From assembly GCA_964502525.1 (NCBI GenBank), contig CAZCXH010000005.1:1-63152 (forward strand): DNA of 63,152 nucleotides, in the 5' to 3' direction. The notes below the pieces were generated by a model. That model did no database searches, was not told the origin of the DNA, and worked only from the letters and a program-made list of their open reading frames with translations. The number at the start of each line of letters is the position of its first letter. Position 1 is the first letter of the stretch. This DNA is from an uncultured Chitinophagaceae bacterium. Its GTDB lineage: Bacteria > Bacteroidota > Bacteroidia > Chitinophagales > CAIOSU01. The position numbers were made by a program, and so were the translations under genes. Below are positions 10,066 through 30,847 of the stretch, one piece after another.

Positions 10066-11757
10066 CTATGCCGTTTGTTTGCTGAAGTTCTGAAACAGCC
10101 ACCCGAAAATCATCACCAGCAGGCACCCGATCAAATTGAGCCAGAGATATTCGATATTCAGGAGTTCCATCTTGTCCAGGGTATAAACCGCAGCTACAAC
10201 TATTTCTGCGATAACCGCTGCGAGAAATACCGGAGTTCCTTTCACCTGTTTGAGAAAAAATGCCGTCAGGAAAACTCCGAGAATCGTTCCGTAAAATAAA
10301 GAGCCGACAATATTCACCGCCTGAATCAGGTTTTCAAACAGCGAGGCGAGAATGGCAAACAGCATGGCAAGGAACCCGAACAGCGCGGTGAAAAATTTGG
10401 AAGCAATCACATAATGCCGGTCTGGCGCTTCGGGCTTGAAATTTCGCTTGTAGATGTCAACCACTGCGGTGGATGCAAGCGCATTCAATTCTGAAGAAGT
10501 GGATGACATGGCAGCAGAGAAAATCACCGCGAGCAGCAGCCCGATGATTCCGATGGGCATGAAGTTCATCACGAAGTAGATGAAGATGTAATCCGAATCT
10601 TTTTTCTCCAGATCAGGATTAACTGACGCGACTACTCCCTGCGCTCTTTTTCTCAACTTATTTTCTTCTTCAAGGCGGTTGTTAATCGCTTCCTGCATCT
10701 CGTGCGTCATTCGTAAATCGTCATTCGAAATTCCACTCAATATCTGTTCGCGTTTCTGTTCAAATAATCCTTTCTGCGCACGTTCTAATTCTGCAACCTC
10801 TTCGGTTTTCACTGCCCGTGCTTTCTCCAGAGCCACTTCATTGAAATAAACAGGAGGAGCGTTCAGTTGAAAAAACACAAACACCATCACGCCCGTCAGC
10901 AGAATCACAAATTGCATTGGTATTTTCAGTAATCCGTTGAAAAGCAGCCCGATCCTGCTTTCGCGCACGGACTGTCCGCCAAGATAGCGCGCCACCTGCG
11001 ATTGGTCGGTGCCGAAATAGGCAAGCTGCAGAAACAATCCTCCCAGCAAACCCGACCACACGTTGTAGCGGTTGCCCAAATCAAAGTTCCAGTCAATGAT
11101 ATTCATCTTGCCCATTTTGCCCGCCACCTGTATTGCCTGCTTGAATGAAATTTGCCCTGATAATTTCCACACCACAATTCCAAACGCAATGAACAACCCG
11201 CCCATCATCACCGCCATTTGCTGCTTGTGGGTTTCATTCACTGCTTTTGTGCCGCCTATCACGGTGTAAAAAATCACCAGCAGGCTGATGAACGCAATGG
11301 TGAAATTCAGCGACCACTGGAGAATTTGCGACAGGATGATTGCAGGCGCATAGATCGTGATGCCCGCTGCCAATCCGCGCTGCAGCAAAAACAAACACGC
11401 GGTGAGGATCCGTGTTTTTCGGTCAAAACGTGATTCCAAAAATTCATAAGCCGTGTAAACTTTCAGCTTGTAAAACAGCGGTATGAACACCGCGCAGATA
11501 ATCACCATGGCGAGCGGCAGTCCGAAATAAAACTGGATGAAGCGCATGCCGTCTTCATAAGCCTGCCCGGGCGTGGAAAGGAAGGTGATGGCGCTTGCCT
11601 GCGTTGCCATCACCGACACGCACACCACCCACCACTTCGATTGGTGATCGCCCAGCAGATAACTTTTGATATTCCCGCTGCCCTTTGTTTTCCACGCTCC
11701 GTAAAAAGCGATGAACAAAAGCGTACCGAGCATTACTGTCCAGTCAATCCAGCTCAT
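10066..11757 (-). CDS. sodium:solute symporter family transporter
   Basis: 563-aa polytopic membrane protein with SSF-like N-terminal helices and a long cytoplasmic coiled insertion. The assignment comes from overall composition and motifs. Confidence 0.8.
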   Translation of the reverse strand: MSWIDWTVMLGTLLFIAFYGAWKTKGSGNIKSYLLGDHQSKWWVVCVSVMATQASAITFLSTPGQAYEDGMRFIQFYFGLPLAMVIICAVFIPLFYKLKVYTAYEFLESRFDRKTRILTACLFLLQRGLAAGITIYAPAIILSQILQWSLNFTIAFISLLVIFYTVIGGTKAVNETHKQQMAVMMGGLFIAFGIVVWKLSGQISFKQAIQVAGKMGKMNIIDWNFDLGNRYNVWSGLLGGLFLQLAYFGTDQSQVARYLGGQSVRESRIGLLFNGLLKIPMQFVILLTGVMVFVFFQLNAPPVYFNEVALEKARAVKTEEVAELERAQKGLFEQKREQILSGISNDDLRMTHEMQEAINNRLEEENKLRKRAQGVVASVNPDLEKKDSDYIFIYFVMNFMPIGIIGLLLAVIFSAAMSSTSSELNALASTAVVDIYKRNFKPEAPDRHYVIASKFFTALFGFLAMLFAILASLFENLIQAVNIVGSLFYGTILGVFLTAFFLKQVKGTPVFLAAVIAEIVVAAVYTLDKMELLNIEYLWLNLIGCLLVMIFGWLFQNFSKQTA

Positions 11758-11881
11758 CCCAGCAACTCTGTGATAATGGAGTAAAGAATAATTTGCAACA
11801 GGAGGAATGCGATTACCGCTATGTAGATGCGGCTCCAGGAATGGAGAAGGGGCGGCTTGTCGCTATATCGGTCCACTCCGT

Positions 11882-12217
11882 CTAATTTTTAAGCAAAGTC
11901 TCAATCTCATCTTTCAAGACGGGAATATCCTTCACAATTATTTTCCAGACGATGGCATTATTCACGGCATCATAAGCGTGAACGACTTTGTTGCGGGTGT
12001 CTATAATTTGCCGGACGTATGAAATATTTATATCCGGTTGAGTCTTGATTATCTTCCCGATTGCCTCGCCAATAATGGACAGTTCTCTTTCCACTGCTCT
12101 GCGGGTGGTATAGTCACGGAGGTATTCGTTGTAATCTCTTTTGCCTTTCAGATGAATATCTATTCCGTTGATGGCGCCTGCGACATCGTGCAGCAGTTTT
12201 TTCACCTCATCATCCAT
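11882..12217 (-). CDS. hepT: HepT-like HEPN ribonuclease toxin (DUF86)
   Basis: It carries the Rx4-6H motif (RNKVVHAY). The ATG at 12217 overlaps the upstream nucleotidyltransferase stop by 8 nt, and the longer track ORF is an over-extension. Confidence 0.8.
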   Translation of the reverse strand: MDDEVKKLLHDVAGAINGIDIHLKGKRDYNEYLRDYTTRRAVERELSIIGEAIGKIIKTQPDINISYVRQIIDTRNKVVHAYDAVNNAIVWKIIVKDIPVLKDEIETLLKN

Positions 12218-12515
12218 AGATGAGCGTCTTGGTTTTTTCAATAACCTTAATAAAATAAGGATTGACAATGGTTTCCTCAGCAACCAGGTCAACTTCCCTG
12301 TTCAGCAATTTTTGTAATTCATACATCGCCTTAAAATAGTGCTCTCCGTATTCGATGGGATCAATTCCTTCTTCCATTTTAATGATTAAATCCACATCAC
12401 TTTCATCATTGAAATCATCGGTGCAAACAGAGCCGAATGCGTATGCCTTGGTTATCCTGTGTGATTTAAGGATCCGGGTAAGTTCTTCAAGGTTATTTTT
12501 TAAAATTGCCTGCAT
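12210..12515 (-). CDS. mntA: MntA-type minimal nucleotidyltransferase antitoxin
   Basis: 101-aa ORF with GS...D.D nucleotidyltransferase motifs (AFGSVCTDDFNDESDVDLII). It is translationally coupled to hepT. Confidence 0.8.
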   Translation of the reverse strand: MQAILKNNLEELTRILKSHRITKAYAFGSVCTDDFNDESDVDLIIKMEEGIDPIEYGEHYFKAMYELQKLLNREVDLVAEETIVNPYFIKVIEKTKTLIYG

Positions 12516-12533
12516 GATGCAAAAATAGCAATA

Positions 12534-15041
12534 TCACTTTTGCGCACTTTCATACCCAACCATATTCGCCATCAACCTGTATGCTCCCGGAACACCGGCA
12601 GGCAGTTGTCTGAAAAAAGAAATTCCTGTGTACATGAAAGTTCCCTTGCCATAGCTTGAAAGCAGCAGGCTTCCTTTTAATGCGTCTTCTCCCGGATCAG
12701 CACAGGAAAACAAAGGAGCATAGTTGCTGTCCCATTCGCTGGCGAAATACAAGCCGCGTTCCTGAACCCAGCCTTGAAAATCTTTTTCCGTGATTTTGTT
12801 GGGATAATTGAAAACCGGATTCTTCGCATCAATCATCGTCATGGGCGCTTCTTCCACCGTCACCCTGCCGCGTCCGATTTTGAAGGGATACGGACCAAAA
12901 TCATTCGTGAGCAAGCCCGCTGTGGTTTGATATTGAACGATGACGTTGCCGCCATTCTTCACATAATTCATCAGGTTTTCCTTTTGATACGGCAGCCATT
13001 TCTCGGTGTTGTAAGCGCGAATCCCGATGAGAACCGCATTAAACTGTGAGAGATTGACCGATGAAAATTTTTCTTTCGAAAGATAAGTGACGTTGTATCC
13101 TGCCTGCTGCAATCCATCGCCCACTTCATCTCCCGCGCCTTTGATGTAAGCGATGTTCGTTCCGTCTTTTTTTAAATCAAGCTTGACGACTTTGATTTTA
13201 GCCACAGGAAACAGAACCTGATAAGGAATATGATCGTAGGCAATTTCGATGTAGTCACGGCCGAAATATTCAATATCGTAACGCGCTTCGGTAATGGGTT
13301 TGAATGTTGGACGCAATTCGAATTCGAGATTTCCCGCAGCAGGCGTCAGCAGGAATTTCACTTCATGCTCATCGCCTTTCCTGGCAAGATTCACAAGAAC
13401 GCTGGCAGGCTCTGACTTCCATCCGTCCGGCAAATTGATGAAAGCAACATCCCCGGTAATGCTGTCTTTCCATGCTTTCACGGTGACGGTAATTTCCTTT
13501 GGCTTGTCATCAGAAAATACCAGAACGGACTGCTGCGGATGAATGGTTCTGTCGGGTGAAACAACAAACGGGCGGTAAATCTCGCCTTTGACCCTGTCCG
13601 TCCATTTGTATTCTACGGGGCGGCAATGCCGTATTGCAACTCCATTAACAACTAAATCAAAGCAAGCCTCCAATGGCGGGAAGTTTTCCGGCAATGCGCG
13701 CATCTTTTCATCCGCTACCGGATACATTCCCGGAGTCTTCTGTTCCCGCGACAACCAATAAGGCAGGCTGACTTCACCCGAAATCAGTCTTAGAGAATCC
13801 GTCAAAATCTCCGGCTTGTTGAATTGCAACATTTTGTTCTGCGTATTGGAGGATCCGCTCGAATAGCTCACTGCATTCAATTTTACATCAGCGGGCGAAC
13901 GGTTGATGGCAACCGTTTTGACGATGACATCCGATGTGGAAGAAAAATCCGAAGCAGCGCTTTCCAGAAACAATCCGCACACCGCATAAATCACCTGCTC
14001 CAATTCTTCTTTTTTGTTTTCGCTCCAGAAATCTTTTTTCTCTTTCAGCAACTGATAAGCCTCAAGAAGATGGGGAAGAATTTTCATTCTATCCTTCGCA
14101 TCAAATTCATCGTAAGCGCGTTTCAGCAGTTGCGAAATTTTCCCGCTTCCGCTCACGCGATTCCATGTGCAGTCAATATCTTCAAACAAATTTTTCTTCG
14201 CCTGCGCGCCTTTCACAAATTCGAGATATTCAATTTCGCTTCCCCTGTTTTCCGCTGCGCCAAAACCCTGGCTCTTGTGCATGGAGCGGCTGCGCGCGGC
14301 AATCTCAGTCACCGACTCTCCCAGTTCGGAAATATAGGCTCCCACATCAATCATGATTTTACCGGTGGTATCAAGCTTTGTTTTTGATTGCTGATAATAC
14401 CACGTGGAAGTGTTCCAATACAACCGTTTCGCCTGCCACGCTTCGACAGCTTTTAGCTGTTCGGGAAAAATTTTCGGATCAGCGGCCATGTCGAATGCCT
14501 TTTCTGCGAGATAAGCAGATGCGGAGTGATGTCCGTGCGTGTCGTAATTATATTTCAGGGGAGGGAAACGGGTGAGGATCACATCGGGCTTGAGCTTCCG
14601 GATCACATAAACCATGTCCTTCAGCACTTCATTCTCATCCCATTTCTGCAGTGTCTCCGAATATGTTTTTGAATATCCGAAATCGTTGGCGCTGGAGAAA
14701 AACTGCCGTCCTCCGTCAATCCTTCTTGCCGCAAGCAATTCCTGCGTACGAATCAGCCCCAGCAATGCGCCCTGCTCGGTTCCTATCAAATTTTGCCCGC
14801 CATCACCGCGTGTCAGCGACATATAAGCGACATCAAGATTTTCTTTTTGCGCGAAGTAAGTGATCATGCGTGTATTCTCGTCATCGGGATGCGCTGCAAT
14901 GTAGAGAACGCTTCCGAGCGTGTTCAGCTTTTTCAGCATCAGCAGGATCTCGCCCGTGTTGTAGTTGCGGGGTTGGGAGTGAGACGGCAGATAAGAGATG
15001 TTGAGAATCAGAAGGAAGAAAAGCAAGAGATGGCGCATCAT
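12534..15041 (-). CDS. PIG-L/LmbE-family deacetylase with large C-terminal extension
   Basis: 835-aa ORF with a signal peptide and the LmbE signature AAHPDDEN. The C-terminal third resembles a ThuA/class-I amidotransferase-like fold, and that part is a low-certainty call. Confidence 0.75.
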   Translation of the reverse strand: MMRHLLLFFLLILNISYLPSHSQPRNYNTGEILLMLKKLNTLGSVLYIAAHPDDENTRMITYFAQKENLDVAYMSLTRGDGGQNLIGTEQGALLGLIRTQELLAARRIDGGRQFFSSANDFGYSKTYSETLQKWDENEVLKDMVYVIRKLKPDVILTRFPPLKYNYDTHGHHSASAYLAEKAFDMAADPKIFPEQLKAVEAWQAKRLYWNTSTWYYQQSKTKLDTTGKIMIDVGAYISELGESVTEIAARSRSMHKSQGFGAAENRGSEIEYLEFVKGAQAKKNLFEDIDCTWNRVSGSGKISQLLKRAYDEFDAKDRMKILPHLLEAYQLLKEKKDFWSENKKEELEQVIYAVCGLFLESAASDFSSTSDVIVKTVAINRSPADVKLNAVSYSSGSSNTQNKMLQFNKPEILTDSLRLISGEVSLPYWLSREQKTPGMYPVADEKMRALPENFPPLEACFDLVVNGVAIRHCRPVEYKWTDRVKGEIYRPFVVSPDRTIHPQQSVLVFSDDKPKEITVTVKAWKDSITGDVAFINLPDGWKSEPASVLVNLARKGDEHEVKFLLTPAAGNLEFELRPTFKPITEARYDIEYFGRDYIEIAYDHIPYQVLFPVAKIKVVKLDLKKDGTNIAYIKGAGDEVGDGLQQAGYNVTYLSKEKFSSVNLSQFNAVLIGIRAYNTEKWLPYQKENLMNYVKNGGNVIVQYQTTAGLLTNDFGPYPFKIGRGRVTVEEAPMTMIDAKNPVFNYPNKITEKDFQGWVQERGLYFASEWDSNYAPLFSCADPGEDALKGSLLLSSYGKGTFMYTGISFFRQLPAGVPGAYRLMANMVGYESAQK

Positions 15042-15099
15042 GTGTGTCTTTTTGGAAGCCGCAAATTAAAGGATTTTGGGACGCATCCTTTACCCGGAA

Positions 15100-16635
15100 T
15101 CAGGATGTCAACTTTCTCGCAAAACGATTGCCTGCCCAAAAGATGAAACAGACCGGATAGAAATAAAGAAAAAATTCGGTGGGATAAATATATCTCGGAA
15201 CGGGAGTGACGGTTAAAGAAAGAAGTATATAATTCATCAGCACCGTCACAAAGAACAACTGAATCGCCAGCAGATGATGGTCATGAATTTTCAGGATAAT
15301 CAGTGATGCAGAAACAAAAAAAGTCAGCCAGAAAAAAATAACCCAAGCGTAGTTATAGAACAGTTTGTTGTAAACAACCTGATAGTAGTGATTGAGTTTG
15401 ATTCCAATTTTTTCATTGGGGAAATTGCTCATGTAGTCTTCGGAGGTGACGATGCCGGTTTTTGTCAGTTTTGTTTTCTGCAAAATCTGATCTGCGTACT
15501 CATGAAAAATCAGGCGGAATGTGTCTTCCGAATCTTTAAAGAAGGTGAAATGGTCGCCCACTTCGATGGCAGATTTGCGCCTGTTCAGATCGTTATAGTA
15601 AAAGAAATAATCGCTTCCCGTGACTTTGAAATAATTGATGAAATTGACGGCAACGAACTTGCAATACGGGACAAAATTTTTCATCCGTGAATTTTTTGCC
15701 AGCGCTTTCAGTTCATCCGGATTGGTCTGATAGACATCCCAAAAAAGAAAGAACTTGTTGTAGTTTTCAAGGGTAAATATTTCAGTCAGCTTTGAATAAG
15801 AGTATGAATTCCTGATGGTTTCCTTCTCGTCATGAGTGAAGGTATGGTTGACAGAATCAATTACCGCCTGCGTTTGCGGAGAATATCCGCCTGACTCGTC
15901 TAAGAAAAAAATGGCGCTGCCGATATTCGGAAGAACCTGAAACTTGCTGAAAGAGAAAGACCCGAAAGTCAATTTGTTATAGCCGAGAAACAGGATGACC
16001 GATACTGTCAATGGCGCGAACAGCGCAAGGTTCTGCTTGTGATTTCTTCGGAGAATATTGTAAAGAAATACAATTCCAAAAACGGGTATCAGAAAGAAAG
16101 CCTGTGGCCGCAGCAGAACTGCAACCGTGTAAAGCGCTGACAGTATCAGATAATGAGAAGCCCTATTGGAGGAGAAGGCAATGAACAGAAAGAAGACAAC
16201 CAATAAAATAACCCAGGTGAAAAGTCCTGTTGGGTTGATATAAGTTTCGAAGAACAAACATTTTCCGGATGAATAAAAAATCAGCGCTGTGAAAAGGAAC
16301 GGCCAATTCAAAAAAGAAAGACGTTTGTTGATCAGATATTGGGCGCAAATCAGAGTCGCCAGGCTGATGAGCGATTGAGCCATGAATATCCGGGAAGTGC
16401 TCAGATGCGCCATCTCCGCTCCAAACAGGAACAAAGGATAAGCAGGAGTGCGCTGATCAAAAACCGGCAGAGAGCCTTTAAGAAGGGCAATTACCGGATA
16501 GTAATAGCCGAATGTGTCCCTGCAAAATCCGGGAATATCATAGTGTAAAAAATAAGTGAGCTTAGTGACGAGAAAGCAAATGATGTACAGCAGAACGCTG
16601 AATAAAAAGAAATTACTTTTTATCCATGCTTTCAT
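15100..16635 (-). CDS. polytopic membrane protein, possibly a GT-C-fold glycosyltransferase
   Basis: 511-aa ORF with about 9 N-terminal TM helices, a ~200-aa soluble insert and C-terminal TM helices. This is an ArnT/PMT-like layout. The gene is visibly AT-rich compared with its neighbours. Confidence 0.45.
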   Translation of the reverse strand: MKAWIKSNFFLFSVLLYIICFLVTKLTYFLHYDIPGFCRDTFGYYYPVIALLKGSLPVFDQRTPAYPLFLFGAEMAHLSTSRIFMAQSLISLATLICAQYLINKRLSFLNWPFLFTALIFYSSGKCLFFETYINPTGLFTWVILLVVFFLFIAFSSNRASHYLILSALYTVAVLLRPQAFFLIPVFGIVFLYNILRRNHKQNLALFAPLTVSVILFLGYNKLTFGSFSFSKFQVLPNIGSAIFFLDESGGYSPQTQAVIDSVNHTFTHDEKETIRNSYSYSKLTEIFTLENYNKFFLFWDVYQTNPDELKALAKNSRMKNFVPYCKFVAVNFINYFKVTGSDYFFYYNDLNRRKSAIEVGDHFTFFKDSEDTFRLIFHEYADQILQKTKLTKTGIVTSEDYMSNFPNEKIGIKLNHYYQVVYNKLFYNYAWVIFFWLTFFVSASLIILKIHDHHLLAIQLFFVTVLMNYILLSLTVTPVPRYIYPTEFFLYFYPVCFIFWAGNRFARKLTS

Positions 16636-19645: not shown

Positions 19646-22447
19646 TCAGAACTCATGGGCCAACCTTACCATTGACAGCCTGCCGATGTGAGGCGCACCG
19701 GGAAACGGCTGATAATTGCTCCCGATAAGATTCTGAATGCTCAATGCTATTTCCGTCTTTTTGGAGAACCATAGTTTGTAAGTGAGGTTCAAATCAAGAA
19801 CATTGTAAGCCTCGACCGGACCGACATACACGCCTGAGTTTGCCGGAAAGCCCTGTTGCCAGCGCCAGCGCAAGCCTGCTTCCAAGCCGATCTTCTCGAT
19901 GTTATAGCTCGCGTTCAATGCTATTTTATTTTTCGGGGCATTCAGCGCAATGTAACCGAACTGCGCTTCTTCATCAGGGATGGAATCTTCGCTCATCCAT
20001 GAGTAGGATGCGCCCAGACGGAAGCCTTTGGTGACAAAGAATGTCGCGCCAATATCAATTCCATAGACTGTCAGGTCTCCAATGTTGCTATAGGAGAGGA
20101 TCATTTCACCCTTCTTGTTTTCTACGGGGGTAACGGTGCCAAAGGGCAGCCCGGAAAATATCCTGATGAATTCATCATCCACCCTGCCATCGCTGTTTCC
20201 CAACTCAGGATTCTTGTCAAGGAACTCTTCAAGAACGCTTATAAATATATAATCATCTTCCGGACCGGGTGATGACCCATAGAGGTTAAATGTTATTGAA
20301 TCGGCAAAGCCTTCCGGGGCAACGAATACTCCGGGCGAAACCAGCGAAATGGCGCTGATGAACCGCTTTTTATCCATCCTGTAAAAATCTGCCGTGAGCA
20401 TCAGCCGGTCGAACAGCATTCCTTTGTAGCCAATCTCATAACTCTGGGTGATTGCATTCGTCAGCGGCTTCACGTCTTTGATTTTTGCCGGATCAATAGT
20501 TCCGCGGAAACGGAACTCAGTGAGATCAAGCGATTTGATGATGTTGAGAGCGGTATCGAGATTCTCAGGGACGATCGTGTTGACAAGACCACGAGCCAGA
20601 TTTTCAGGAAATCCCTGGGCGCTGAACTGCTCTATCACCACATCCTTGATTGCATCAAAGCCCAGTTCTGTCAGGATCGGATCGTTCAGATTATTGTAGG
20701 CTGCCGGATTGGAGCCAAGAGGGGAGAGGTATTGAGGAAGGGTGGGGGTGCCTTCTACGTAAGGATTGTTCGCATACTGATAATTGAACCCGTCACGGTT
20801 GCCCTCAGCCATAATAGGGATGTTAATATAGGGAACATATCCCTGTATCACGTCTAAACTCAGATTGGTGCTGCCCGGTGAATCAAACGCCCTGTTGTAA
20901 GTGGCGCGCAGCGTGTGTTTCTCAGTGGGCTTGTAAACGAAGGCAGCGCGGGGAGAGAAGAAAATGCCGTTAACGAAAGTGTGATAGTCGCCACGAACCG
21001 CTCCCACCAGCGTGATTTTTTTATGGACGTCAAAGTCGCCCTGCAGGTACAAGCCCAATTCATTGATGTTGTCATCATCCTCATTTTTGCCATAAAGCGT
21101 GCGGTCGGTATTCGGGTTGGTGATGAAGGCGTCACCGCCATAGGTGAAACGTATTTGTTCAATCGGCTTCCAGCTATGCTGCAGTTGTATTACGAAGAAT
21201 TTGCTCTTGTCAATCACCCGGTTGCCGCTGCGCAGCAGGCGCGTGTCGCCCGAGTTGGAGAAGTTGGAATAAAACTGGGCGAACAATTCTTTCCATTTGA
21301 ACCGCGCCTGGGCGTAGAAATATTTCCAGTTGATTACCTGTGAGGCGCCCAGCCCTGTCATTTCCACGTTGGAGCCGTTGCGGAAGCCGCCCGAGAAAAT
21401 CAGCTCCGTTTGCGGACGCAGGCGGCAGTCAATACGGGCATCCGCGCTGTAGGAGATGATGTTATTATCACGGCTGTTGTCAACAGGTCCTTCGATAGTG
21501 TCGTTGCCTTCGGCAGTCTGGCGAATCACAAAGACGGTGTCAGGTTCCGCAGGATCAACGTAGGGCCAGTCGTCTCCGTTGAAATAATTGCCGGATATTT
21601 TATATCCTACTTTTTTGCTGATTTTGCCGCCATGCCACACGTTGGCGCTCCACACATCACGGTTGCCCCAGTCGCGCGTTGAGTCATCCTGCTGCCCTTC
21701 TATGCCGTACGCCATTGTCGCTCTGGTTTTGAATTTCTCCTTCATGTCGAGTGGCGACTTGGTGATGATATGCACCACACCGCTTGCTGCATTCGGACCA
21801 TACAATGCGGATGCCGGACCCTTCACCACTTCGATACGCTCGATGTCTTCCGTACTGGTGGGGATGAGTTGGAAGGCATTCACGCGCAGCGAAGGCACAC
21901 TGCCGATGCGGTTATCCACCGCTGTGAACAGTGAGGCGGAGAACACGTTGTTGAACCCGCGTGTCACCACGTTGCCGCTCACAAGGCTTGTCGGGATGAT
22001 GTCAACACCAGGAGTGCCTTCGATATTTTTAAAGAGGTTGATGGGAATGCTGTTGCGGATTTGTGCCGCATTTACCACCGTTATCGCTGATGGAGAATTA
22101 AGGATTTTCTCCTCGCGCTTCGAGCCGCTGATTACCACCTGATCGAGGTCAACCTCGGTTTCGCCCAACGCAATGCTCAACGGAACCTTAATTTCCGTTG
22201 CTGGAATTTCTTTTTCGGAAAATCCGATAAACGTAAATATCAGCGCTGAGGCATCAGACGGTAATTCCAAAGAGAAACTCCCGTTAATATCCGTGATTGT
22301 TCCGGTTGTTGTTCCTTTTACCTTCACGCTGACTCCTACCAGAGGTTCCCCGTTTCTGGCGTCAGTGACGATTCCGGTGACGATTTGCTGGGAATATGCC
22401 GCACAAAACAGGCAGCACAGGGTGATGACTAGCAAAATATTTCTCAT
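19646..22447 (-). CDS. TonB-dependent receptor with CarboxypepD_reg-like N-domain
   Basis: The start at M48 gives the signal peptide MRNILLVITLCCLFCAAYSQQ. A carboxypeptidase-regulatory-like domain (VTGIVTDARNGEPLVGVSVKVKGTT) and a plug follow, then a beta-barrel ending in a terminal aromatic residue (..LAHEF). Confidence 0.85.
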   Translation of the reverse strand: MRNILLVITLCCLFCAAYSQQIVTGIVTDARNGEPLVGVSVKVKGTTTGTITDINGSFSLELPSDASALIFTFIGFSEKEIPATEIKVPLSIALGETEVDLDQVVISGSKREEKILNSPSAITVVNAAQIRNSIPINLFKNIEGTPGVDIIPTSLVSGNVVTRGFNNVFSASLFTAVDNRIGSVPSLRVNAFQLIPTSTEDIERIEVVKGPASALYGPNAASGVVHIITKSPLDMKEKFKTRATMAYGIEGQQDDSTRDWGNRDVWSANVWHGGKISKKVGYKISGNYFNGDDWPYVDPAEPDTVFVIRQTAEGNDTIEGPVDNSRDNNIISYSADARIDCRLRPQTELIFSGGFRNGSNVEMTGLGASQVINWKYFYAQARFKWKELFAQFYSNFSNSGDTRLLRSGNRVIDKSKFFVIQLQHSWKPIEQIRFTYGGDAFITNPNTDRTLYGKNEDDDNINELGLYLQGDFDVHKKITLVGAVRGDYHTFVNGIFFSPRAAFVYKPTEKHTLRATYNRAFDSPGSTNLSLDVIQGYVPYINIPIMAEGNRDGFNYQYANNPYVEGTPTLPQYLSPLGSNPAAYNNLNDPILTELGFDAIKDVVIEQFSAQGFPENLARGLVNTIVPENLDTALNIIKSLDLTEFRFRGTIDPAKIKDVKPLTNAITQSYEIGYKGMLFDRLMLTADFYRMDKKRFISAISLVSPGVFVAPEGFADSITFNLYGSSPGPEDDYIFISVLEEFLDKNPELGNSDGRVDDEFIRIFSGLPFGTVTPVENKKGEMILSYSNIGDLTVYGIDIGATFFVTKGFRLGASYSWMSEDSIPDEEAQFGYIALNAPKNKIALNASYNIEKIGLEAGLRWRWQQGFPANSGVYVGPVEAYNVLDLNLTYKLWFSKKTEIALSIQNLIGSNYQPFPGAPHIGRLSMVRLAHEF

Positions 22448-22673
22448 AGGCATTCCCAAAATAAGGTTTCGTCTTGAGGCTGCCAAATTAGAAATAATTG
22501 TTATCTCGAAACAAGTGAAAAATGAACTATAGACGGCCCGAAGGACGCACATCAAAGCAGAATGGCTTTCATCAGGAATCAGCGTCATCCGCGGTAAAAA
22601 TTTTCAGCCGTTATGGAAAAATCCAACCATCCGCATCTTCAATTCCAAACCATTCATTCACTTCTAAAAATTT

Positions 22674-25049
22674 ATGCTTATGAAAAACCAATTTCAAAAA
22701 ATGAAGATAGCGCTGCTTTCGGCAGGAATATTTCTTATCCCGGCTGTTGCGACCTTTAGTTGCAATGCTCAGGGTAGAATTATAGAAAGCGGGAATACCG
22801 ATGATAAAACGCTCTCTCCCTATTTTTTCGTAAAAAGCGACAATCCCGATGTTGACCAGATGCCGCTGAAAGAAACATCGGCAGAAGTGAATATCGCAGG
22901 GGTGATTGCCAATGTGGTCGTGAAGCAGGTGTATTTTAATTCGGGCAAGAAAACCCTCGAAGCGATTTACATTTTTCCGGGTTCTACACGGGCGGCAGTG
23001 TATGCGATGAGGATGAGAGTGGGTGAAAGAATCTTAACTGCAAAGATTGATGAGCGTGAAAAAGCGCGGAAAGATTATGAAGCCGCTAAGCAACAAGGCA
23101 AAACCACTTCGCTGCTGGAACAGCAGCGTCCTAATGTTTTTCAGATGAACGTTGCCAATATCCTTCCCGGAGATACCATCACCGTTGAGTTGAAATATAC
23201 GGAATCGCTGGTTCCGGAAAGCGGTATTTACGAGTTTGTTTATCCAACGGTGGTTGGTCCTAGATATTCCAATCAGCCGGTGGCGACCGCATCAGTTTCC
23301 GAGTTTTGGGTGGAGAATCCCTATACGCATTCGGGAGAAAAGCCATCTTACAAGTTTGACATCAGCGCCACTATCAATGCCGGAATGCCAATCAAGGAAG
23401 TAACCTGTTCTTCGCATGACGTCAAAGTGAATTTTACCGGAAAATCAAGCGCGACAGTTTTGCTGAAAAACGATGAGAGTCACAGCGGCAACCGCGACTA
23501 TATCCTGAAGTACAGACTTGCCGGCTCGATGGTTGAATCGGGAGTGTTGTTGTATAAAGGCGAAAAAGAAAATTTCTTCCTCGCCATGCTGCAGCCGCCA
23601 CAGCGCGTGATGCCCGACCAAATCCCGGGGAGGGAATACATTTTTATCGTTGACGTTTCCGGCTCGATGTATGGTTATCCGCTTGAAATCTCCAAGAAGC
23701 TGCTGAAAGATTTGATCGGCAGCCTGCGCCCGACAGACAAATTCAACGTGTTGCTTTTTGCAGGCGGAAATTCGGTGATGTCGGAAAAATCGCTTGCAGC
23801 CACGAAAGAGAATATCAACAAAGCGGTTCATCTTATAGAAAACCAGCAGGGTGGAGGAGGAACGGAATTGCTGCCTGCATTGCAGCGGGCAATGAACATA
23901 CCCAAGCAGGAAGATTTCTCGCGGACGGTTGTGATCGCAACGGATGGTTATGTCACCGTTGAAAAAGAGGCGTTCGATTTGATCCGCAACAACCTCGGCA
24001 ATTCCAATTTCTTCACGTTCGGAATTGGCACAAGCGTGAACCGCTACATCATCGAAGGCATGGCAAGGGTTGGGAATGGAGAGCCTTTTGTGATAACGGA
24101 AGAAGGCGAGGCAGCGGCTAAGGCTGATAAATTCAGGGAATACATTCAAAGCCCCGTGCTGACGAACGTGAAAGTTGATTTCGGAAAATTCGAAGTGTAT
24201 GACGTGGAGCCGGTGAATATTTCAGATATGCTTGCTGAACGCCCTGTGCTGGTTTTCGGAAAATGGAAAGGCGATCCTCTTGGGACAATGAAGTTTACCG
24301 GCATTACGGGTGAAAAAAATTATGAGGCATGCCTCGAAGTGAATTCGGGGTTGGCGGGCACAGACAATTCGGCATTGAAGTATTTGTGGGCGCGGCAGAA
24401 AATCGCATTGCTCGATGATTATGGAAAATTTGGAAGCGATCAGGATTTGATCAATCAGGTCACGCAACTCGGATTGGAGTACAACCTGCTTACGGCTTAC
24501 ACTTCATTCATTGCGATTGATTCAGTGGTGCGGGGAGATGGTAAAGTGATAGCCGTGAAACAGCCGCTGCCCTTGCCTGAAGGCGTTTCTGATTACGCGG
24601 TTGGGACTCCGGGCAGCATTACCACTTATGGGGGCATAGGAAACTATGCGCCAAAAATGAAGTTGCAATACAATATGTCTGTTGCTGAAACCGCTTATGA
24701 GGAAAAATCAGAAGATGATTCTGATGGCGACTCGGTTTTCATGACGGTCGAGCAGATGCCGGAATTTTCTGGAGGAGGACAGCAAAGCATGATAAATTTT
24801 ATCCAGCAGAATCTGCATTATCCGGATAATGCCAAAGCGAAGAAAATAGAAGGCATTGTTTACGTCAGCTTCGTTGTTGATGAAACCGGCAAAATCACGG
24901 ATGTGAAAGTTGAAAAAGGCATGTCAAAGGAATTGGATGCGGAAGCCGTTCGGGTGGTTAAAAAAATGCCACCATGGAAACCGGGCATGCAAAAAGGCAA
25001 AGCGGTGAAAACGAGGATGGTGTTGCCGATAAAATTTTCATTGTCCTGA
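22674..25049 (+). CDS. VIT + von Willebrand factor A + TonB C-terminal domain fusion protein
   Basis: It has a signal peptide, a VIT-like N-domain, a vWA MIDAS motif (DVSGSM) and a C-terminal TonB_C-like module (MPEFSGGGQQSMINFIQQNLHYP...GIVYVSFVVDETGKITDVKV). Confidence 0.8.
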   Translation: MLMKNQFQKMKIALLSAGIFLIPAVATFSCNAQGRIIESGNTDDKTLSPYFFVKSDNPDVDQMPLKETSAEVNIAGVIANVVVKQVYFNSGKKTLEAIYIFPGSTRAAVYAMRMRVGERILTAKIDEREKARKDYEAAKQQGKTTSLLEQQRPNVFQMNVANILPGDTITVELKYTESLVPESGIYEFVYPTVVGPRYSNQPVATASVSEFWVENPYTHSGEKPSYKFDISATINAGMPIKEVTCSSHDVKVNFTGKSSATVLLKNDESHSGNRDYILKYRLAGSMVESGVLLYKGEKENFFLAMLQPPQRVMPDQIPGREYIFIVDVSGSMYGYPLEISKKLLKDLIGSLRPTDKFNVLLFAGGNSVMSEKSLAATKENINKAVHLIENQQGGGGTELLPALQRAMNIPKQEDFSRTVVIATDGYVTVEKEAFDLIRNNLGNSNFFTFGIGTSVNRYIIEGMARVGNGEPFVITEEGEAAAKADKFREYIQSPVLTNVKVDFGKFEVYDVEPVNISDMLAERPVLVFGKWKGDPLGTMKFTGITGEKNYEACLEVNSGLAGTDNSALKYLWARQKIALLDDYGKFGSDQDLINQVTQLGLEYNLLTAYTSFIAIDSVVRGDGKVIAVKQPLPLPEGVSDYAVGTPGSITTYGGIGNYAPKMKLQYNMSVAETAYEEKSEDDSDGDSVFMTVEQMPEFSGGGQQSMINFIQQNLHYPDNAKAKKIEGIVYVSFVVDETGKITDVKVEKGMSKELDAEAVRVVKKMPPWKPGMQKGKAVKTRMVLPIKFSLS

Positions 25050-25698: not shown

Positions 25699-27288
25699 AT
25701 GAATTTGCGGTTTAATAAATTGATTGTTCAGCCGTTCTGTTTGGCCGCTCTGTTGCTGATTGGATCAACCGTTCAGGCTCAGGGAACTGATTCCATAAAT
25801 GTTGTTCCCAATTTGGTATTCGATTCGGAACCTGAAAACCTCGGCAGCAATATCAATTCTGAATATGCCGAAGCCCTGCCTGTGATTGCCCCTGACGGAA
25901 GGAGCATATATTTCGTGAGAAAAAATCATCCCCAAAACTTTGACGCCAATTTCGAGGCGAACGATGATATCTGGTATTCAACCCTCGACAGCAGCGGCAA
26001 CTGGACTCCCGCTGTGAACATAGACTATCCCCTTAACAACAGCCATCACAACTTTGTATGCTCCGTTACGCCTGACGGCAATATGCTTCTGCTCGGCAAC
26101 CAGTATTTCAAAGACGGCTCAACCGCTGGTGGCGCGTCCATTTCCGTGATGGGGAAAAAAGGCTGGGAGTTTCCGAAGAATCTGAAGATCGAAGACTTCC
26201 AAAATAATGCCGCTCATATTGAAATCAGCATGACCGGTGATGGGAAGGCGCTGCTGATGACCATCCAGACGGATGACGCCATCGGTGCCCGGGATATTTA
26301 CGTCAGCCTTCGCAAAGACGAGCATATATGGACAAAACCTCTCAGCCTCGGAGCTGTGGTTAATTCTGCCGGTGATGAAGCAACGCCCTTTTTAGCGTCT
26401 GACGGCAAAACGCTCTACTTCGCCACCGATGGCCGGCCGGGTTATGGAGGCTATGACGTTTTCATGGCAAAACGCCAGGATTCCACATGGACAAATTGGA
26501 GCGAGCCGCTCAACCTGGGCAATGGCATTAACTCGGCTGCGAAAGAAGCTTACTACCGCATCCCCGCATCGGGCGATTACGCCTATTATGTTTCTGAAAA
26601 AAACTCACTGGGAAGCACGGATATTTTCCGGATAAAACTGCCGCAGGAAATTCGCCCCGACCCGGTGGTGCTGGTGTATGGCACCGTTTACAACAAAAAA
26701 ACGCTGAAGCCGATTGGCAATGCGAATGTTAAATATGAAATTTTACCAGGAGGTGAGGAAGCCGGCATAGCGCGCTCCGAGCCTGACAGCGGCACCTACA
26801 AGATAGTGCTGCCCTATGGGAAATTTTACGGCATCCTCGCAAAAGCCGAAGGGTTCATATCGGTTTCCGACAACTTAGACCTTGCTCAGGTGGCGGAATA
26901 CAAAGAGATTCGGAAAGACCTTTATCTCGCGCCCGTGGAAGTAGGGGAGGTGGTGCGGCTGAATAATATTTTCTTCGACTATGACAAAGCCACACTGCGC
27001 CCTGAATCATTTCCCGAATTAGACCGCGTGGTAACTTTTTTGAAAGACAACAGAAAAGTGGAGATTGAACTGTCTGGGCATACGGATAATAGGGGCAGCG
27101 ATGATTACAACCTTTCCCTCTCGCAAAACCGCGCAAAGGCGGTTGTTGATTACATTATCCAGCAAGGCATTGACTCTTCGCGGCTTGTCGCCAAAGGATA
27201 TGGCGAAACAAAGCCCGTTGCATCCAATGACACTGAAGAAGGAATGCAACTGAACAGAAGGGTGCAGTTTGAGATATTGAAGAAGTAA
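25699..27288 (+). CDS. OmpA-family protein with TolB-like beta-propeller repeats
   Basis: It has a signal peptide, repeated TolB/WD40-like units (..PDGRSIYF.., ..SDGKTLYFA..) and a C-terminal OmpA domain (NNIFFDYDKATLRPES...GHTDNRGSDDYNLSLSQNRA...NRRVQFEI). Confidence 0.85.
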   Translation: MNLRFNKLIVQPFCLAALLLIGSTVQAQGTDSINVVPNLVFDSEPENLGSNINSEYAEALPVIAPDGRSIYFVRKNHPQNFDANFEANDDIWYSTLDSSGNWTPAVNIDYPLNNSHHNFVCSVTPDGNMLLLGNQYFKDGSTAGGASISVMGKKGWEFPKNLKIEDFQNNAAHIEISMTGDGKALLMTIQTDDAIGARDIYVSLRKDEHIWTKPLSLGAVVNSAGDEATPFLASDGKTLYFATDGRPGYGGYDVFMAKRQDSTWTNWSEPLNLGNGINSAAKEAYYRIPASGDYAYYVSEKNSLGSTDIFRIKLPQEIRPDPVVLVYGTVYNKKTLKPIGNANVKYEILPGGEEAGIARSEPDSGTYKIVLPYGKFYGILAKAEGFISVSDNLDLAQVAEYKEIRKDLYLAPVEVGEVVRLNNIFFDYDKATLRPESFPELDRVVTFLKDNRKVEIELSGHTDNRGSDDYNLSLSQNRAKAVVDYIIQQGIDSSRLVAKGYGETKPVASNDTEEGMQLNRRVQFEILKK

Positions 27289-30018
27289 TCAGGATGTCCC
27301 AACGTTTATAGTACTCTCCTCCGCCATTTTCACCGCCTGTTCCATTGTCATTCTCTTTCCGGATTCATAAGCCTGTGTGAATTCAGGTTCCGGCAGGATT
27401 CTGTGCAATTCAGCAGTTACACTTTCGTGCAACGCGCGGTCAGAAACCCAAAATGCATAGCCGATGGCTTTGATGGACGCATCCACTCTTCCTATCAGGT
27501 GCGCGGCTTTCAGGGTTTCACCACGCGAAAGCGCAATGCTTGACAGTCCGAGCATGCCGGCTGCAACAATCACATTCTCGCCTGTAAGACGCCCGCTGCT
27601 GATGGCGGTTTCATATTCCTTTTTAGCATTTTCCAAATCCTGCATCTCGCGGTAGCTGTGCCCCATCCCAACGTATGCCCATCCGCTGATTATTTTAAAT
27701 CCGGATTGTTGATAGCGCTGCAGGCTCATATTGAATGCCGGAATTGCCTCCGCGAATTTTCCGAGCGCGTTCAACATGTTGCCTTTCTGCATCATGGCGA
27801 TGCCCGACATCATGCTGTTGCCTGTTTGCAGGCTCAGGCGCTCGGCTTCATCAATCAACTGTTGCGCCATCTCCAGTTTTCCTGCGTTGGCTACCGCTTC
27901 TGCGAGCGTAGCCGATGCCGCGATGATGCTGTAAGGGTCGTTATATTCCTCTCCTAATTTTTTTGCCTCCATCAATATGTCGAGTGCAACAAGTTCACCG
28001 CAGCTCAGGTGGGTGACTCCCAGGTAAATCATCGCCCGCACGAGTGATGATTTCATTCCCAACTCCCGGAACAACTCAACGCTTTGCTTCAGGTCTCTTT
28101 TCCCTTTTTCGTAGCTTCCTGTGCTGAACATCACGATGCCTGATGAAAGCAGCGTGCCTGCAAAAATCACTTTATCATCTTTGCTAATTAATTCCATTGC
28201 CGTGCTGTCATGGGCGATATGCGCGGCTTCAATCCATTGAGCGGCTTCGCCTAATCTTCCCCGCATCATCCAGCAATGATTCAGCGCGCGCACCACACGC
28301 CATGCATCGCGGTAGCGGTTTGCTTCCACCGAGTTCCAGAATGCCGCGCGCAGATTCTGGTAATCCCGCTCAATGCGGTCAAACGCAGGATTATCGCTCA
28401 CTAACCATGCATCAGGATTCACTTTCTCGGCAAGCTCAATAAAATAACCGGTGTGCGCCTTCTTCACAGCGGACGCTTCAGCGCTGCGCAACAGCATATC
28501 TGTGGCGTATTCAAGCACTGTTTGCAACATTGTAAAGCGCGGCTCAACAGTTGCATCGCGCTCATTGTAATATGAAAATGTGCGGATGAGCCCGAAGTCG
28601 AGCAGCTTTTCGGTGGCATCCATGATGTCGCAATCCAGGGCGCCTGCCCTTTCTGCTACCGACTGTGCCGAATCGAGCGTCCACCCGTCACTGAACACGG
28701 CAAGATGCCTGAATAATTTCTGACAGGAAGGATCGAGCAGGTTGTAGCTCCAGTCAATGGTGGCGCGAAGCGTTTTCTGGCGGTCGGGCAAATCGCGGTG
28801 CCCGTGTGAGAGCAGGTCGAGCGTTTTGTTCATGCGGCTTTGCAAAGCTGCCGGGCTGAGAAATTTTGTGCGTGAAGCGGCAAGCTCGATGGCGAGCGGC
28901 AGTCCGTCAAGCCTGCGGCAGATTTCCGAAATAGCGCGCACGTTTTCATCATCCAACGGCACATTCAGGTTCACTGCCCTGGCGCGCTGAATGAATAATT
29001 CCACCGAAGGAAATTTCAAAATTTCACTGCGGGAAAAAATCCGTTCACCTTCCGCATGTTGCAGCGGCTGAACCGGGATGACATATTCCCCACGGATGTG
29101 CAGCGGTGTGCGGCTGGTAACAATGATTTTGATGCAGTTGCAGTGTTCCAGCATTTCACTTAGCGCTACTGCCGCTCCAACGATTTGCTCGAAGTTGTCG
29201 AGCACCAGCAAAATATTTTTATCGCACAGGTAATCAAAGAGCGTGGTTTTGATAGCCTGCTTTCCGGAATCAAACAAGCCCAATACATGCGCAATCATAG
29301 CGGGCAGCAACGTTTCATCGGTAACAGAAGAAAGCGGCACGTAGTATAATCCGTCTTTGAAACGCTCTTTGATATTGTTCGCAAATTGAATGGCAAGGCG
29401 CGTTTTACCGGTGCCACCGGTGCCGGTGAGTGTAACGAGGCCGACATCAGGCCGTGCGATTAATTCTCCAAGTTCCTGCAATTCTTTTTCACGACCCAGA
29501 AGCGCAGAATGAATGACAGGAAGATTGGATTTGTGTTCATGCTTTTGCAAGGGCTGCTCAAATTTTTCAGACAGCAGCAAAGCCAAATCATTCTCGAGCA
29601 GCTCCCGTAATTCTTCCGCAGAAGAAAAATTCCTGTAACAGACATTTCCGCTCTTTTCGATTTGCTTCAGCAGCGCAGCGAGTTTTTCATCGCGGCTGCC
29701 GGAAGGCTGTTTTACATAAATGAGCCGCGTTTTCCCTTCGGAAAGGAGGTATTCATCCTCTAATCCTGAAATGGTCATGTCCGGAGCAATCCAGCCGTAG
29801 CTGTTCCAATAGATGCCGACAAAAATGTGGCTCTGCTCCAAATATGCGCGATACAACTCGCGTGGCGGATGCGGACGCGCGCCCAATTCAAACAGTACGG
29901 GCGTGAGACGCAGTTTCGTGATTGCCTCTGTTGCCGCTTTGCGCTCATCCGCCAGTTCCTGTATCGTGGAACTGATAAACACGCGCACACGCTGGTCGGG
30001 GGTTTTGATTGCAGGCAT
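27289..30018 (-). CDS. STAND/NB-ARC-type NTPase with DUF4062-like N-domain and C-terminal TPR array (NLR-like)
   Basis: The N-domain reads VRVFISSTIQELADERKAATEAI...HIFVGIYWNSYGW. It has a Walker A GTGGTGKTRLA, a Walker B LLVLDNFEQ and GLPLAIELAA. About 350 aa of TPR-like helical repeats follow. Confidence 0.75.
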   Translation of the reverse strand: MPAIKTPDQRVRVFISSTIQELADERKAATEAITKLRLTPVLFELGARPHPPRELYRAYLEQSHIFVGIYWNSYGWIAPDMTISGLEDEYLLSEGKTRLIYVKQPSGSRDEKLAALLKQIEKSGNVCYRNFSSAEELRELLENDLALLLSEKFEQPLQKHEHKSNLPVIHSALLGREKELQELGELIARPDVGLVTLTGTGGTGKTRLAIQFANNIKERFKDGLYYVPLSSVTDETLLPAMIAHVLGLFDSGKQAIKTTLFDYLCDKNILLVLDNFEQIVGAAVALSEMLEHCNCIKIIVTSRTPLHIRGEYVIPVQPLQHAEGERIFSRSEILKFPSVELFIQRARAVNLNVPLDDENVRAISEICRRLDGLPLAIELAASRTKFLSPAALQSRMNKTLDLLSHGHRDLPDRQKTLRATIDWSYNLLDPSCQKLFRHLAVFSDGWTLDSAQSVAERAGALDCDIMDATEKLLDFGLIRTFSYYNERDATVEPRFTMLQTVLEYATDMLLRSAEASAVKKAHTGYFIELAEKVNPDAWLVSDNPAFDRIERDYQNLRAAFWNSVEANRYRDAWRVVRALNHCWMMRGRLGEAAQWIEAAHIAHDSTAMELISKDDKVIFAGTLLSSGIVMFSTGSYEKGKRDLKQSVELFRELGMKSSLVRAMIYLGVTHLSCGELVALDILMEAKKLGEEYNDPYSIIAASATLAEAVANAGKLEMAQQLIDEAERLSLQTGNSMMSGIAMMQKGNMLNALGKFAEAIPAFNMSLQRYQQSGFKIISGWAYVGMGHSYREMQDLENAKKEYETAISSGRLTGENVIVAAGMLGLSSIALSRGETLKAAHLIGRVDASIKAIGYAFWVSDRALHESVTAELHRILPEPEFTQAYESGKRMTMEQAVKMAEESTINVGTS

Positions 30019-30147
30019 GAGCGTAAAGTTAAAAATTTGCGGGACGGGCGTCCAGATCGGAGTTCTGAGCTATATGGAAGCTCATCAACGTTTTTGTGGC
30101 GGTGGGGATTGCGAGAGGAATCCGGCTTTGAGCTGTACGATTTTCGA

Positions 30148-30170
30148 CCGTAAACAAGTAAACCGTAAAC
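30148..30170. repeat. GTTTACGG-family short repeat cluster (reverse orientation)
   Basis: CCGTAAACAAGTAAACCGTAAAC lies just downstream of the FMN reductase stop. Related clusters are at 30755-30805 and 60566-60595. Confidence 0.6.
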
Positions 30171-30173
30171 GCA

Positions 30174-30754: not shown

Positions 30755-30805
30755 GGTTTACGCGCTTACGGTTTACTGTTTACATGTTGTCAGACAATCG
30801 TAAAC
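30755..30805. repeat. GTTTACGG-family repeat cluster with hairpin
   Basis: GGTTTACGCGCTTACGGTTTACTGTTTAC is followed by the hairpin GTTTACATGTTGTC A GACAATCGTAAAC. It lies immediately upstream of the FMN reductase start. Confidence 0.6.
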
Positions 30806-30847
30806 ATATATGCCGGCTTTCCTTGCACCTTGAACCTGCTCCTAACC

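Follow-up and report, generated by a model that had tools for sequence, protein, structure and literature searches.

A DUF4062/NIR-headed NB-ARC–TPR protein from an uncultured Chitinophagaceae bacterium is a candidate NAD+-depleting NLR-like switch

The domain DUF4062 is a TIR-like NAD+ hydrolase (NADase), which converts NAD+ to ADP-ribose (ADPR) and nicotinamide (Nam) (Osinski et al, 10.64898/2026.05.01.722283). In the Klebsiella protein KpSwz (Swarozyc) it provides defence against phage by abortive infection, which depends on Glu97 (E97) and is activated by the phage portal, while the DUF4062 of human TEP1 has E1008-dependent NADase activity, which increases with concentration (Osinski et al, 10.64898/2026.05.01.722283). 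Evangelion is a single-gene DUF4062 defence family for which the data support a model of NAD+ depletion, and its members have an aromatic motif conserved at the N-terminus and a catalytic region designated ‘E-Y’ (Ibarra-Chavez et al, 10.64898/2026.06.25.731849). In PsAvs2 the domain, there renamed NIR, is followed by a STAND NTPase and TPR repeats; the protein protects E. coli from phage through NAD+ depletion that depends on E108, and since its co-expression with the large subunit of a phage terminase is toxic, terminase was suggested as the activator (Le Mouellic et al, 10.64898/2026.09.04.749371). The same study reports NIR in other NLR-like proteins and places 20.0% of NIR genes close to defence genes, where the expectation (within ten genes) would be 3.9%. 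According to these preprints DUF4062 clusters apart from canonical TIR, NAD+ glycohydrolase activity has been reported for KpSwz, PsAvs2, Vulcan, Vesta and TEP1 alone, the assayed active domains give ADPR and Nam as their sole products, and all the bacterial DUF4062 proteins tested so far are antiphage. STAND proteins as a whole divide into 589 clades, 198 of them defence-associated and interspersed with clades that are not (Lee et al, Nature 2026, PMC13581612). Here we describe a DUF4062(NIR)-NB-ARC-TPR gene in a stretch of 63,152 nucleotides from an uncultured Chitinophagaceae bacterium (contig CAZCXH010000005.1; the whole stretch is referred to below as the window).

The gene lies at 27289-30018 on the minus strand, as do all of its parts given below. 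It is complete and encodes a protein of 909 residues from an ATG start, the N-terminus of which lines up with the starts of its homologues in the family alignments. A first reading of this DNA from its letters (the original prediction) had recognised in this open reading frame (ORF) a DUF4062-like N-terminal module, Walker A and Walker B motifs, an NB-ARC/AfsR-type helix and a TPR-like tail, in the effector-NTPase-sensor layout of antiviral STAND (Avs) and bacterial NLR-related proteins. All of these parts were recovered from the ORF list, the translation, Pfam and a full-length AlphaFold2 (AF2) model, and the layout is upheld by domain scans, structure prediction and the literature. It had also held that DUF4062 has no assigned activity, which is outdated, and that the effector mechanism would be undescribed, which is contradicted by the same three DUF4062 preprints of 2026 that assign or support an NADase function. 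NLR-like proteins with an NIR domain had been noted before and one of them, PsAvs2, has been validated, and the window protein does not represent an undescribed mechanism.

The head of the protein (residues 10-155; 29554-29991) is a TIR-like DUF4062/NIR domain and, as judged from Pfam, AF2 and profile searches, a predicted NADase effector. PF13271 matches residues 12-91 (E = 1.9e-19), and its 70.1 bits are above the cut-off of 24.7. In an AF2 model of residues 1-165 (predicted local distance difference test (pLDDT) 81.3, predicted template modelling score (pTM) 0.77) it forms five beta-alpha units, with strands at residues 12-16, 39-42, 65-70, 97-103 and 127-131. A profile built from 28 heads of the family and run against all PDB chains found KpSwz (E = 7.3e-5) and TEP1 (E = 0.0094) and no other meaningful match, and with hhalign the head aligned to a segment of KpSwz with a probability of 95.2% (E = 2.6e-8). 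The head is, by these matches, homologous to experimentally proven NADases. The likeness to KpSwz in the profile search is confined to residues 8-97 of the window protein.

The aligned segment contains the active-site motif, S84-G-L-E87-D-E89-Y90 (29749-29769), which hhalign places against S-F-T-E95-K-E97-F of KpSwz. In both the hmmsearch and the hhalign alignments E89 (29752-29754) stands opposite the position of E97, which is an alanine in the deposited mutant, and S84, G85, E87, D88 and E89 are invariant among both 36 and 28 aligned family members. By alignment E89 is therefore the equivalent of the catalytic E97 of KpSwz, E108 of PsAvs2 and E1008 of TEP1, and the motif matches the ‘E-Y’ catalytic region of Evangelion, with Y90 as its tyrosine. 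A pairwise phmmer alignment had made E87 the counterpart of E97; this was rejected, as the profile search, hhalign and the S-x-x-E-x-E motif all give E89. Elsewhere in the head F14, S16-S17-T18 and the loop G46-A-R-P-H-P-P52 are invariant or nearly so across the family. The loop falls within a putative BB loop between strand B and helix B, E44-L-G-A-R-P-H-P-P52 (29863-29889), where E44, G46, A47, R48, P49 and P52 are invariant, H50 and P51 are nearly so, and the pLDDT of the full-length model is low at residues 45-51. From its position G46-A-R-P-H-P-P52 is probably the BB loop and a candidate regulatory or active-site loop; the BB loop is regulatory in KpSwz and TEP1 according to one of the preprints cited above. 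The invariant catalytic glutamate, the motif around it and the very strong purifying selection on the head together argue for catalysis, and by analogy with its assayed relatives the head would be expected to hydrolyse NAD+.

The fold itself was less informative. It had been suggested originally that the head be compared by Foldseek with TIR and nucleoside deoxyribosyltransferase-like folds. The head alone came out at a template modelling (TM) score of ~0.5 with flavodoxins, TIR domains (RPS4/RRS1 and RUN1), TIR-STING, BcmB and DNPH1 alike, in a fold library that ended on 8 April 2026 and with the KpSwz entry not among the matches. The predicted structure thus confirms the class of fold (flavodoxin/TIR/N-deoxyribosyltransferase) but not the family, flavodoxins scoring equally well. 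As the search does not discriminate, we relied on the profile sequence comparisons instead.

The head is followed by an NB-ARC-type STAND module made up of a nucleotide-binding domain, a helical domain and a winged helix (residues ~173-510; 28489-29502; Pfam and Foldseek). Pfam NB-ARC matches residues 183-426 with 40.6 bits against a cut-off of 23.5 (E = 2.3e-10), whereas NACHT (19.1 bits, cut-off 26.7) and NPHP3_N are both below their cut-offs. The Walker A, Walker B, sensor-I arginine and GxP motifs are all present and in order. The Walker A motif or P-loop, GTGGTGKT (residues 199-206), is found in the translation at 29401-29424, so that the span of ~29401-29440 originally given for it was essentially right, and G199, G201, G202, G204 and K205 are invariant in the family alignment. 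So are D274, N275 and E277 of the Walker B motif LLVLDNFEQ (residues 270-278; 29185-29211). T301-S302-R303 (29110-29118), with S302 and R303 invariant, comes after the strand at residues 297-302 of the model, and from general knowledge of NB-ARC motifs we take it to be sensor I. The helix GLPLAIELAA (residues 372-381; 28876-28905), which carries the GxP motif of the ARC1 helical domain, is invariant at G372, P374, L375, A376, E378, L379, A380 and A381.

The remainder of the protein is a TPR-like alpha-solenoid (residues ~515-900; 27319-28476), which is predicted to be the ligand sensor. TPR_MalT and TPR_12 of Pfam cover residues 699-849 of it, and in the AF2 model its ~400 residues are all-helical, arranged as ~20 paired helices with a pLDDT mostly above 90. 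The full-length model (pLDDT 84.7, pTM 0.79) has as its top Foldseek match the archaeal STAND-TPR protein 6mfv (E = 3.8e-14), with further matches to the TIR-NLR RPP1 (E ~4e-10), ZAR1, the NRCs, CED-4 and Apaf-1, and more distantly to the SIR2-STAND protein EfAvs5. By sequence similarity the chassis is an NB-ARC-TPR of the AfsR/cyclase type.

The protein belongs to a large family. A full-length search matched at least 8000 proteins, the best 120 of which are nearly all of ~900 residues with the same layout and 38-49% identity; closer relatives are 88, 85, 66 and 61% identical. There are at least 577 loci in species-representative genomes, ranging over Bacteroidota (Chitinophagia, Saprospiraceae and Flavobacteriales), Chloroflexota, Actinomycetota, Dadabacteria and three metagenome-assembled genomes (MAGs) of Thorarchaeota, with a concentration in Chloroflexota, Actinomycetota and Saprospiraceae. 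When only the head was used as query in an exhaustive search, 695 representative clusters came out at E <= 1e-30, and in the 150 best the identity across the full head is 58-80%. The proteins, 830-1000 residues in length, nearly always have this domain at their N-terminus. Across the family the mean pairwise identity is 68% for the head, 49% for the NTPase and 25% for the TPR region. The family combines a conserved effector with a diversified sensor, which is the pattern expected of NLR-type receptor families.

Several genomes carry multiple or tandem copies, and the most telling pair is found in a Dehalococcoidia MAG (BPIC01000001; locus L025) at 7252-9942 and 9986-12661. The heads of these paralogues do not differ at any of their 146 residues, and the DNA that encodes them is 99-100% identical; exactly after the head the DNA identity drops to 50-73%, and the TPR tails are 31% identical as protein. 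This looks like the boundary of a gene conversion or recombination event at the junction of head and linker. A third copy, which is head-less, lies upstream at 5549-7255. In another locus (L024) the tandem paralogues are at 9974-12736 and 12729-15485.

A few members carry additional domains. One of 1228 residues (L046, 1714-5400) has a PNP_UDP_1 (phosphorylase-superfamily) domain in front of the DUF4062, NB-ARC and TPR parts, and another of 1107 residues (P0110) has a class III cyclase domain between the head and the NTPase; P0054 was grouped among the loci with variant architectures. A 2035-residue open frame (L023, 9914-16021) extends through a DUF4062-NB-ARC-TPR gene and on through a cyclase-AAA_16 gene, and may be a fusion or the result of a missed stop or frameshift. 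Full-length members are present in the Thorarchaeota (Asgard) MAGs (L048, L051 at 9974-12697, and L054). Two genes upstream of the member in L051 is a Rab/Ras-like small GTPase (7175-8305), so this contig looks genuinely Asgard and not like bacterial contamination.

Taken together, it would seem fairly likely that the window protein is a ligand-triggered, NAD+-depleting NLR-like switch with a probable antiviral role. At rest, the DUF4062/NIR head would be held inactive on the NB-ARC STAND NTPase. A trigger, which by analogy with Avs proteins may be a conserved phage protein, would bind the TPR solenoid, whereupon the NB-ARC module would swap its nucleotide and oligomerise, and the NIR heads clustered in this way would hydrolyse NAD+ to ADPR and Nam. 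NAD+ would be drained, the cell would arrest and the infection would be aborted. In this scheme four points are modelled on PsAvs2, KpSwz and TEP1: that the head is an NADase, that oligomerisation activates it, what kind of trigger it answers to and that it acts against viruses.

The surroundings of the gene across the family bear on this scheme. No recurrent partner gene was found within four genes of the focal gene in ~80 loci, which favours direct depletion of NAD+ over production of a signal. The largest cluster of neighbours is present in 8 of the ~80 loci at varying positions and consists of generic histidine kinases and TPR-cyclases joined by their shared domains; the second largest is made up of paralogues of the STAND gene itself. 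The original description of the gene as a singleton was thus right in two senses, there being neither a recurring partner in 80 homologous loci nor, on the ORFs scanned individually at 10066-63023, a match to a PADLOC defence model beyond generic desaturase and ABC-ATPase ones. In relatives with an OmpA protein 77-83% identical to that next to the STAND gene, the pair of orf175 and OmpA is kept and neither the STAND gene nor the FMN (flavin mononucleotide) reductase gene comes after it. As the STAND gene is absent from this junction in the relatives and the 88% identical homologue lies elsewhere, its position is an accessory one. Overall, members of the family are single genes that need no partner, occur in scattered places and have at most a weak tie to defence islands.

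A number of observations weigh against an antiviral role or an active head. PADLOC scanning, as suggested originally, was carried out with PADLOC-DB v2, which we take to hold models of Avs1-5. At E <= 1 no Avs or other defence model of this library matches the STAND protein beyond generic TPR, TRIP13 and mad8 matches, and no defence model was found on the ORFs scanned individually between 10066 and 63023 apart from a generic desaturase match and an ABC-type ATPase weakly matching mad3, AriA and mad8. The library is without Avs7-21 and without the ~90 sensor clusters of Lee et al (2026). Among 128 neighbouring ORFs, within two genes on either side at ~42 loci and scored by single hidden Markov model matches in PADLOC, a handful match defence models and several of these matches are generic. 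They comprise TPR matches (adjacent paralogues included), three cyclase matches and single matches to Cas12f, SngC, BrxHI, PDC-S70, PDC-M11B, DpdJ, Csx1 and PD-T4-2_B, of which we read the Cas12f match as TnpB-like; the neighbours are mostly metabolic and signalling genes by Pfam. Seven annotated contexts of homologues are likewise housekeeping or signalling regions, with no classical defence system beside the gene bar one toxin-antitoxin pair. The locus of the 85% identical homologue is syntenic with the window and the 88% identical homologue lies among glycosyltransferase-type genes; in the others ftsZ, ligA and tyrS or dnaA, dnaN, rnpA, yidC, gidB and parAB are adjacent, histidine kinases surround the gene, or feoAB is close by together with a PIN/DUF433 toxin-antitoxin pair.

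The family is also essentially absent from viral contigs (IMG/VR), where two distant relatives without the DUF4062 head and with 28-29% identity over the chassis were found (L084 and L085). In the first of these (7077-10127) an AfsR-like SARP/BTAD head stands where the window protein has DUF4062; the second locus has adjacent class III cyclase-ATPase-TPR genes at 4336-7521 and 7380-10181, of which only 7380-10181 is the matched relative. The NB-ARC-TPR chassis is common to AfsR-like regulators and class III cyclases. The identity between the head and KpSwz is just 27% over the segment aligned by hhalign, and the purified human DUF4062-NACHT proteins NWD1, NWD2 and NPHP3 are without NADase activity, so a DUF4062 head on a STAND protein is not automatically active. 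Of the original immune reading the layout stands, while the immune role of this clade, which has neither a defence island nor a PADLOC Avs match, stays presumptive.

An alternative, without an antiviral role, is that the same NAD+ switch responds to an endogenous metabolite or stress; in filamentous and complex environmental bacteria the loss of NAD+ would then bring on dormancy, a developmental form of cell death or a shutdown of metabolism. An AfsR/cyclase-type NB-ARC-TPR chassis fits such a role, as does the likeness of the sensor to that of MalT, whose TPR_MalT-like sensor binds small molecules. The housekeeping and signalling contexts point the same way, together with the lack of a defence-model match on the ORFs scanned at 10066-63023, the histidine kinases and cyclases among the neighbours, the concentration in Chloroflexota, Actinomycetota and Saprospiraceae, and the variant with a cyclase domain (P0110). 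However, hypervariable sensors and tandem paralogues with identical heads are hard to square with one conserved ligand, and the gene is patchy and accessory in position. In the variant with PNP_UDP_1 the added domain is of a type, PNP, that is listed among anti-phage defence domains in the abstract of Le Mouellic et al (10.64898/2026.09.04.749371). With the antiphage record of the bacterial DUF4062 proteins tested so far also against it, we regard an endogenous trigger as rather unlikely, and prefer the antiviral form of the NAD+-depleting switch.

A second alternative, which we consider quite doubtful, is that the head does not deplete NAD+ here but acts on another N-glycosidic substrate (on a nucleotide, or in the manner of a CMP hydrolase), makes an NAD+-derived signal or serves as a module for oligomerisation or interaction. 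The Foldseek result is as near to flavodoxins, the CMP (cytidine monophosphate) N-glycosidase BcmB and DNPH1 as to TIR, and, as one of the cited preprints recounts, the first annotation of the domain in Avs proteins was that of a CMP hydrolase. A scaffold role has been proposed for NWD1, NWD2 and NPHP3, which are inactive on NAD+, functional diversification has been speculated upon by Le Mouellic et al (10.64898/2026.09.04.749371), and the low identity to KpSwz leaves room for such divergence. Against this, the catalytic glutamate and its motif are invariant under very strong purifying selection, no conserved partner to receive a signal is seen in the ~80 loci, and the assayed active DUF4062 domains yield ADPR and Nam only. 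The last alternative, an AfsR/MalT-like transcription regulator of neighbouring metabolic genes, was named in the original prediction as what would speak against an immune gene, and it is practically refuted: the partial likeness to NCBIfam AfsR (residues 140-473, E = 8.9e-17, with 60 bits where the cut-off is 1430), the weak TPR match to NCBIfam MalT (12.5 bits against 537) and the Pfam TPR_MalT match are in its favour, but the NCBIfam scores are all far under the family cut-offs, Pfam finds no DNA-binding domain (SARP/BTAD, LuxR or helix-turn-helix) in the protein at E <= 1, which removes this reading, DUF4062 takes the SARP site of the AfsR-like relative L084, and there is no conserved neighbouring operon in 80 loci.

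The window has 47% G+C, encodes proteins with type IX secretion tails, a SusC-like TonB-dependent receptor and housekeeping genes, and so has the look of Bacteroidota chromosomal DNA; the sequencing runs that contain its sequence are all DNA runs of activated-sludge metagenomes. The immediate neighbours of the STAND gene are genes for a VIT-VWA-TonB_C protein, a small ORF, a PD40-OmpA protein, the FMN reductase, a pirin, a 519-residue protein and an M43 peptidase. The PD40-OmpA and STAND genes are convergent with abutting stops, as had been seen originally: the last base of the TAA that closes the OmpA-family gene is 27288, and the TGA of the STAND gene, which reads TCA on the plus strand, occupies the next three positions from 27289 on (TAA|TCA, 27286-27291), with zero bases between them. 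The abutting stops are kept in a syntenic locus (L081, 7479/7480). No terminator-like hairpin is found at this junction.

On the other side, the upstream spacer on the minus strand, 155 bp from the FMN-reductase stop to the STAND start (30019-30173), contains two copies of GTTTACGG (30148-30155 and 30163-30170). This element has 7 exact copies in the window against 0.85 expected and clusters in intergenic spacers, the other sites being three tandem copies near 60.57 kb (60566-60595), 60720-60727 and 172-179; further GTTTAC copies, degenerate and inverted ones, are found at ~30760-30810, upstream of the FMN reductase. Repeat clusters do therefore flank the FMN reductase gene as first described, with the nuance that one of them is in the upstream region of the STAND gene itself. 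In the syntenic locus L081 one copy is found at the equivalent place, just past the FMN-reductase stop (4280-4287). The element could be an operator or a repetitive extragenic palindromic (REP)-like sequence. A scan of the spacer for sigma-70 promoters and terminators gave nothing above shuffled controls, though such a scan does not cover Bacteroidota promoters.

Further from the gene, a pooled PADLOC scan of the window ORFs gave strong matches to a model of a Type I restriction specificity subunit (1.6e-48) and to the candidate systems PDC-S13 (3.3e-117), PDC-S11, PDC-S05 and PDC-S18. These would come from ~3400-10050 or from small ORFs at 52649-53011, 56211-56678 and 57622-57960. As the individual scans exclude 10066-63023, the genes responsible are more than 17 kb from the STAND gene. 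In PDB searches with four ORFs of the 4-10 kb region one amidohydrolase was the sole informative match. At 22674-25049 on the plus strand is the gene for the VIT-VWA-TonB_C protein, an unusual fusion of 791 residues; it is divergent from the gene for a CarboxypepD_reg-Plug-TonB-dependent receptor (19646-22588, minus strand) and is conserved in the syntenic L081.

What makes the family of interest is its size and phyletic breadth, which had gone undetected, together with the unusually conserved and apparently gene-converted head, the weak or absent association with defence islands and the question of its trigger. It is a large, cross-phylum family of NLR-like proteins with a predicted NADase head in environmental bacteria and Asgard archaea that is not flagged by PADLOC v2 and is for the most part located away from defence islands. 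If it is antiviral, methods based on guilt by association would miss a sizeable share of NAD+-depleting immunity in taxa of wastewater and soil, and the trigger would widen the known range of targets of bacterial NLR-like sensors. Otherwise an NIR NADase would be used for endogenous signalling, which would bear on the roles of TEP1, NWD1/2 and NPHP3 in animals. In either case the sharp boundary between identical heads and divergent sensors in the tandem paralogues provides a natural example of effector-sensor modularity. A more far-reaching proposal, speculative and in our estimation improbable, would see in the family a lineage of pattern-recognition receptors in its own right, based on the AfsR-type NB-ARC-TPR chassis and not on any described Avs clade, with uncatalogued triggers and with sensor cassettes diversifying after a homogenised and gene-converted NADase head; its presence in Thorarchaeota would then make it a prokaryotic counterpart, and possibly a relative, of the NIR-NTPase-TPR proteins of eukaryotes, NPHP3 and TTC41 among them.

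Among the known systems PsAvs2 of Pseudomonas chlororaphis (WP_273864396.1) has the same order of parts, a single gene that encodes a DUF4062/NIR head, then a STAND NTPase and at the C-terminus TPR-like repeats, and the catalytic glutamate is kept (E108 in PsAvs2, E89 in the window protein). Compared with PsAvs2, as known from its description, the window protein differs in having no PADLOC Avs match, an NB-ARC/AfsR-type NTPase and a TPR_MalT-like solenoid. PsAvs2 also comes from Pseudomonadota, while the window gene is from Bacteroidota and lies outside a defence island. Swarozyc (KpSwz; PDB 10wc, 11cq and 11cv) has a homologous TIR-like DUF4062 head, and both it and Evangelion (Eva01) share with the window protein the ‘VFISST’ motif at F14 and the S-x-x-E-x-E-Y motif. 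These two, however, are proteins of ~300 residues that lack an NTPase and have a short auxiliary region made of helices, in contrast to the 909 residues with NB-ARC and TPR described here; KpSwz is activated directly by the portal, whereas in the window protein a STAND switch and a TPR sensor are placed in between. The eukaryotic proteins TEP1, NWD1, NWD2, NPHP3 and TTC41 also have a DUF4062 head before a STAND NTPase, followed by WD40 or TPR repeats. Their NTPase is of the NACHT type, while the window protein passes the NB-ARC cut-off only, and the head of TEP1, a proven NADase, is weakly similar to the window head (E = 0.0094).

The plant TIR-NLRs RPP1 and ROQ1 and the Avs proteins bearing TIR or SIR2 heads (EfAvs5) may be seen as analogous, with sensor repeats, a STAND switch and NADase heads activated by proximity, although the TIR-NLRs have a canonical TIR and leucine-rich repeats in place of DUF4062 and TPR. 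In its chassis the window protein is closest to the AfsR/SARP and class III cyclase NB-ARC-TPR proteins of Actinomycetota and to archaeal 6mfv; in the AfsR/SARP and cyclase relatives an N-terminal DNA-binding SARP or a cyclase replaces the NADase head. With Avs proteins in general it has in common a single polypeptide in which an N-terminal effector is joined through a STAND NTPase to a C-terminal repeat sensor.

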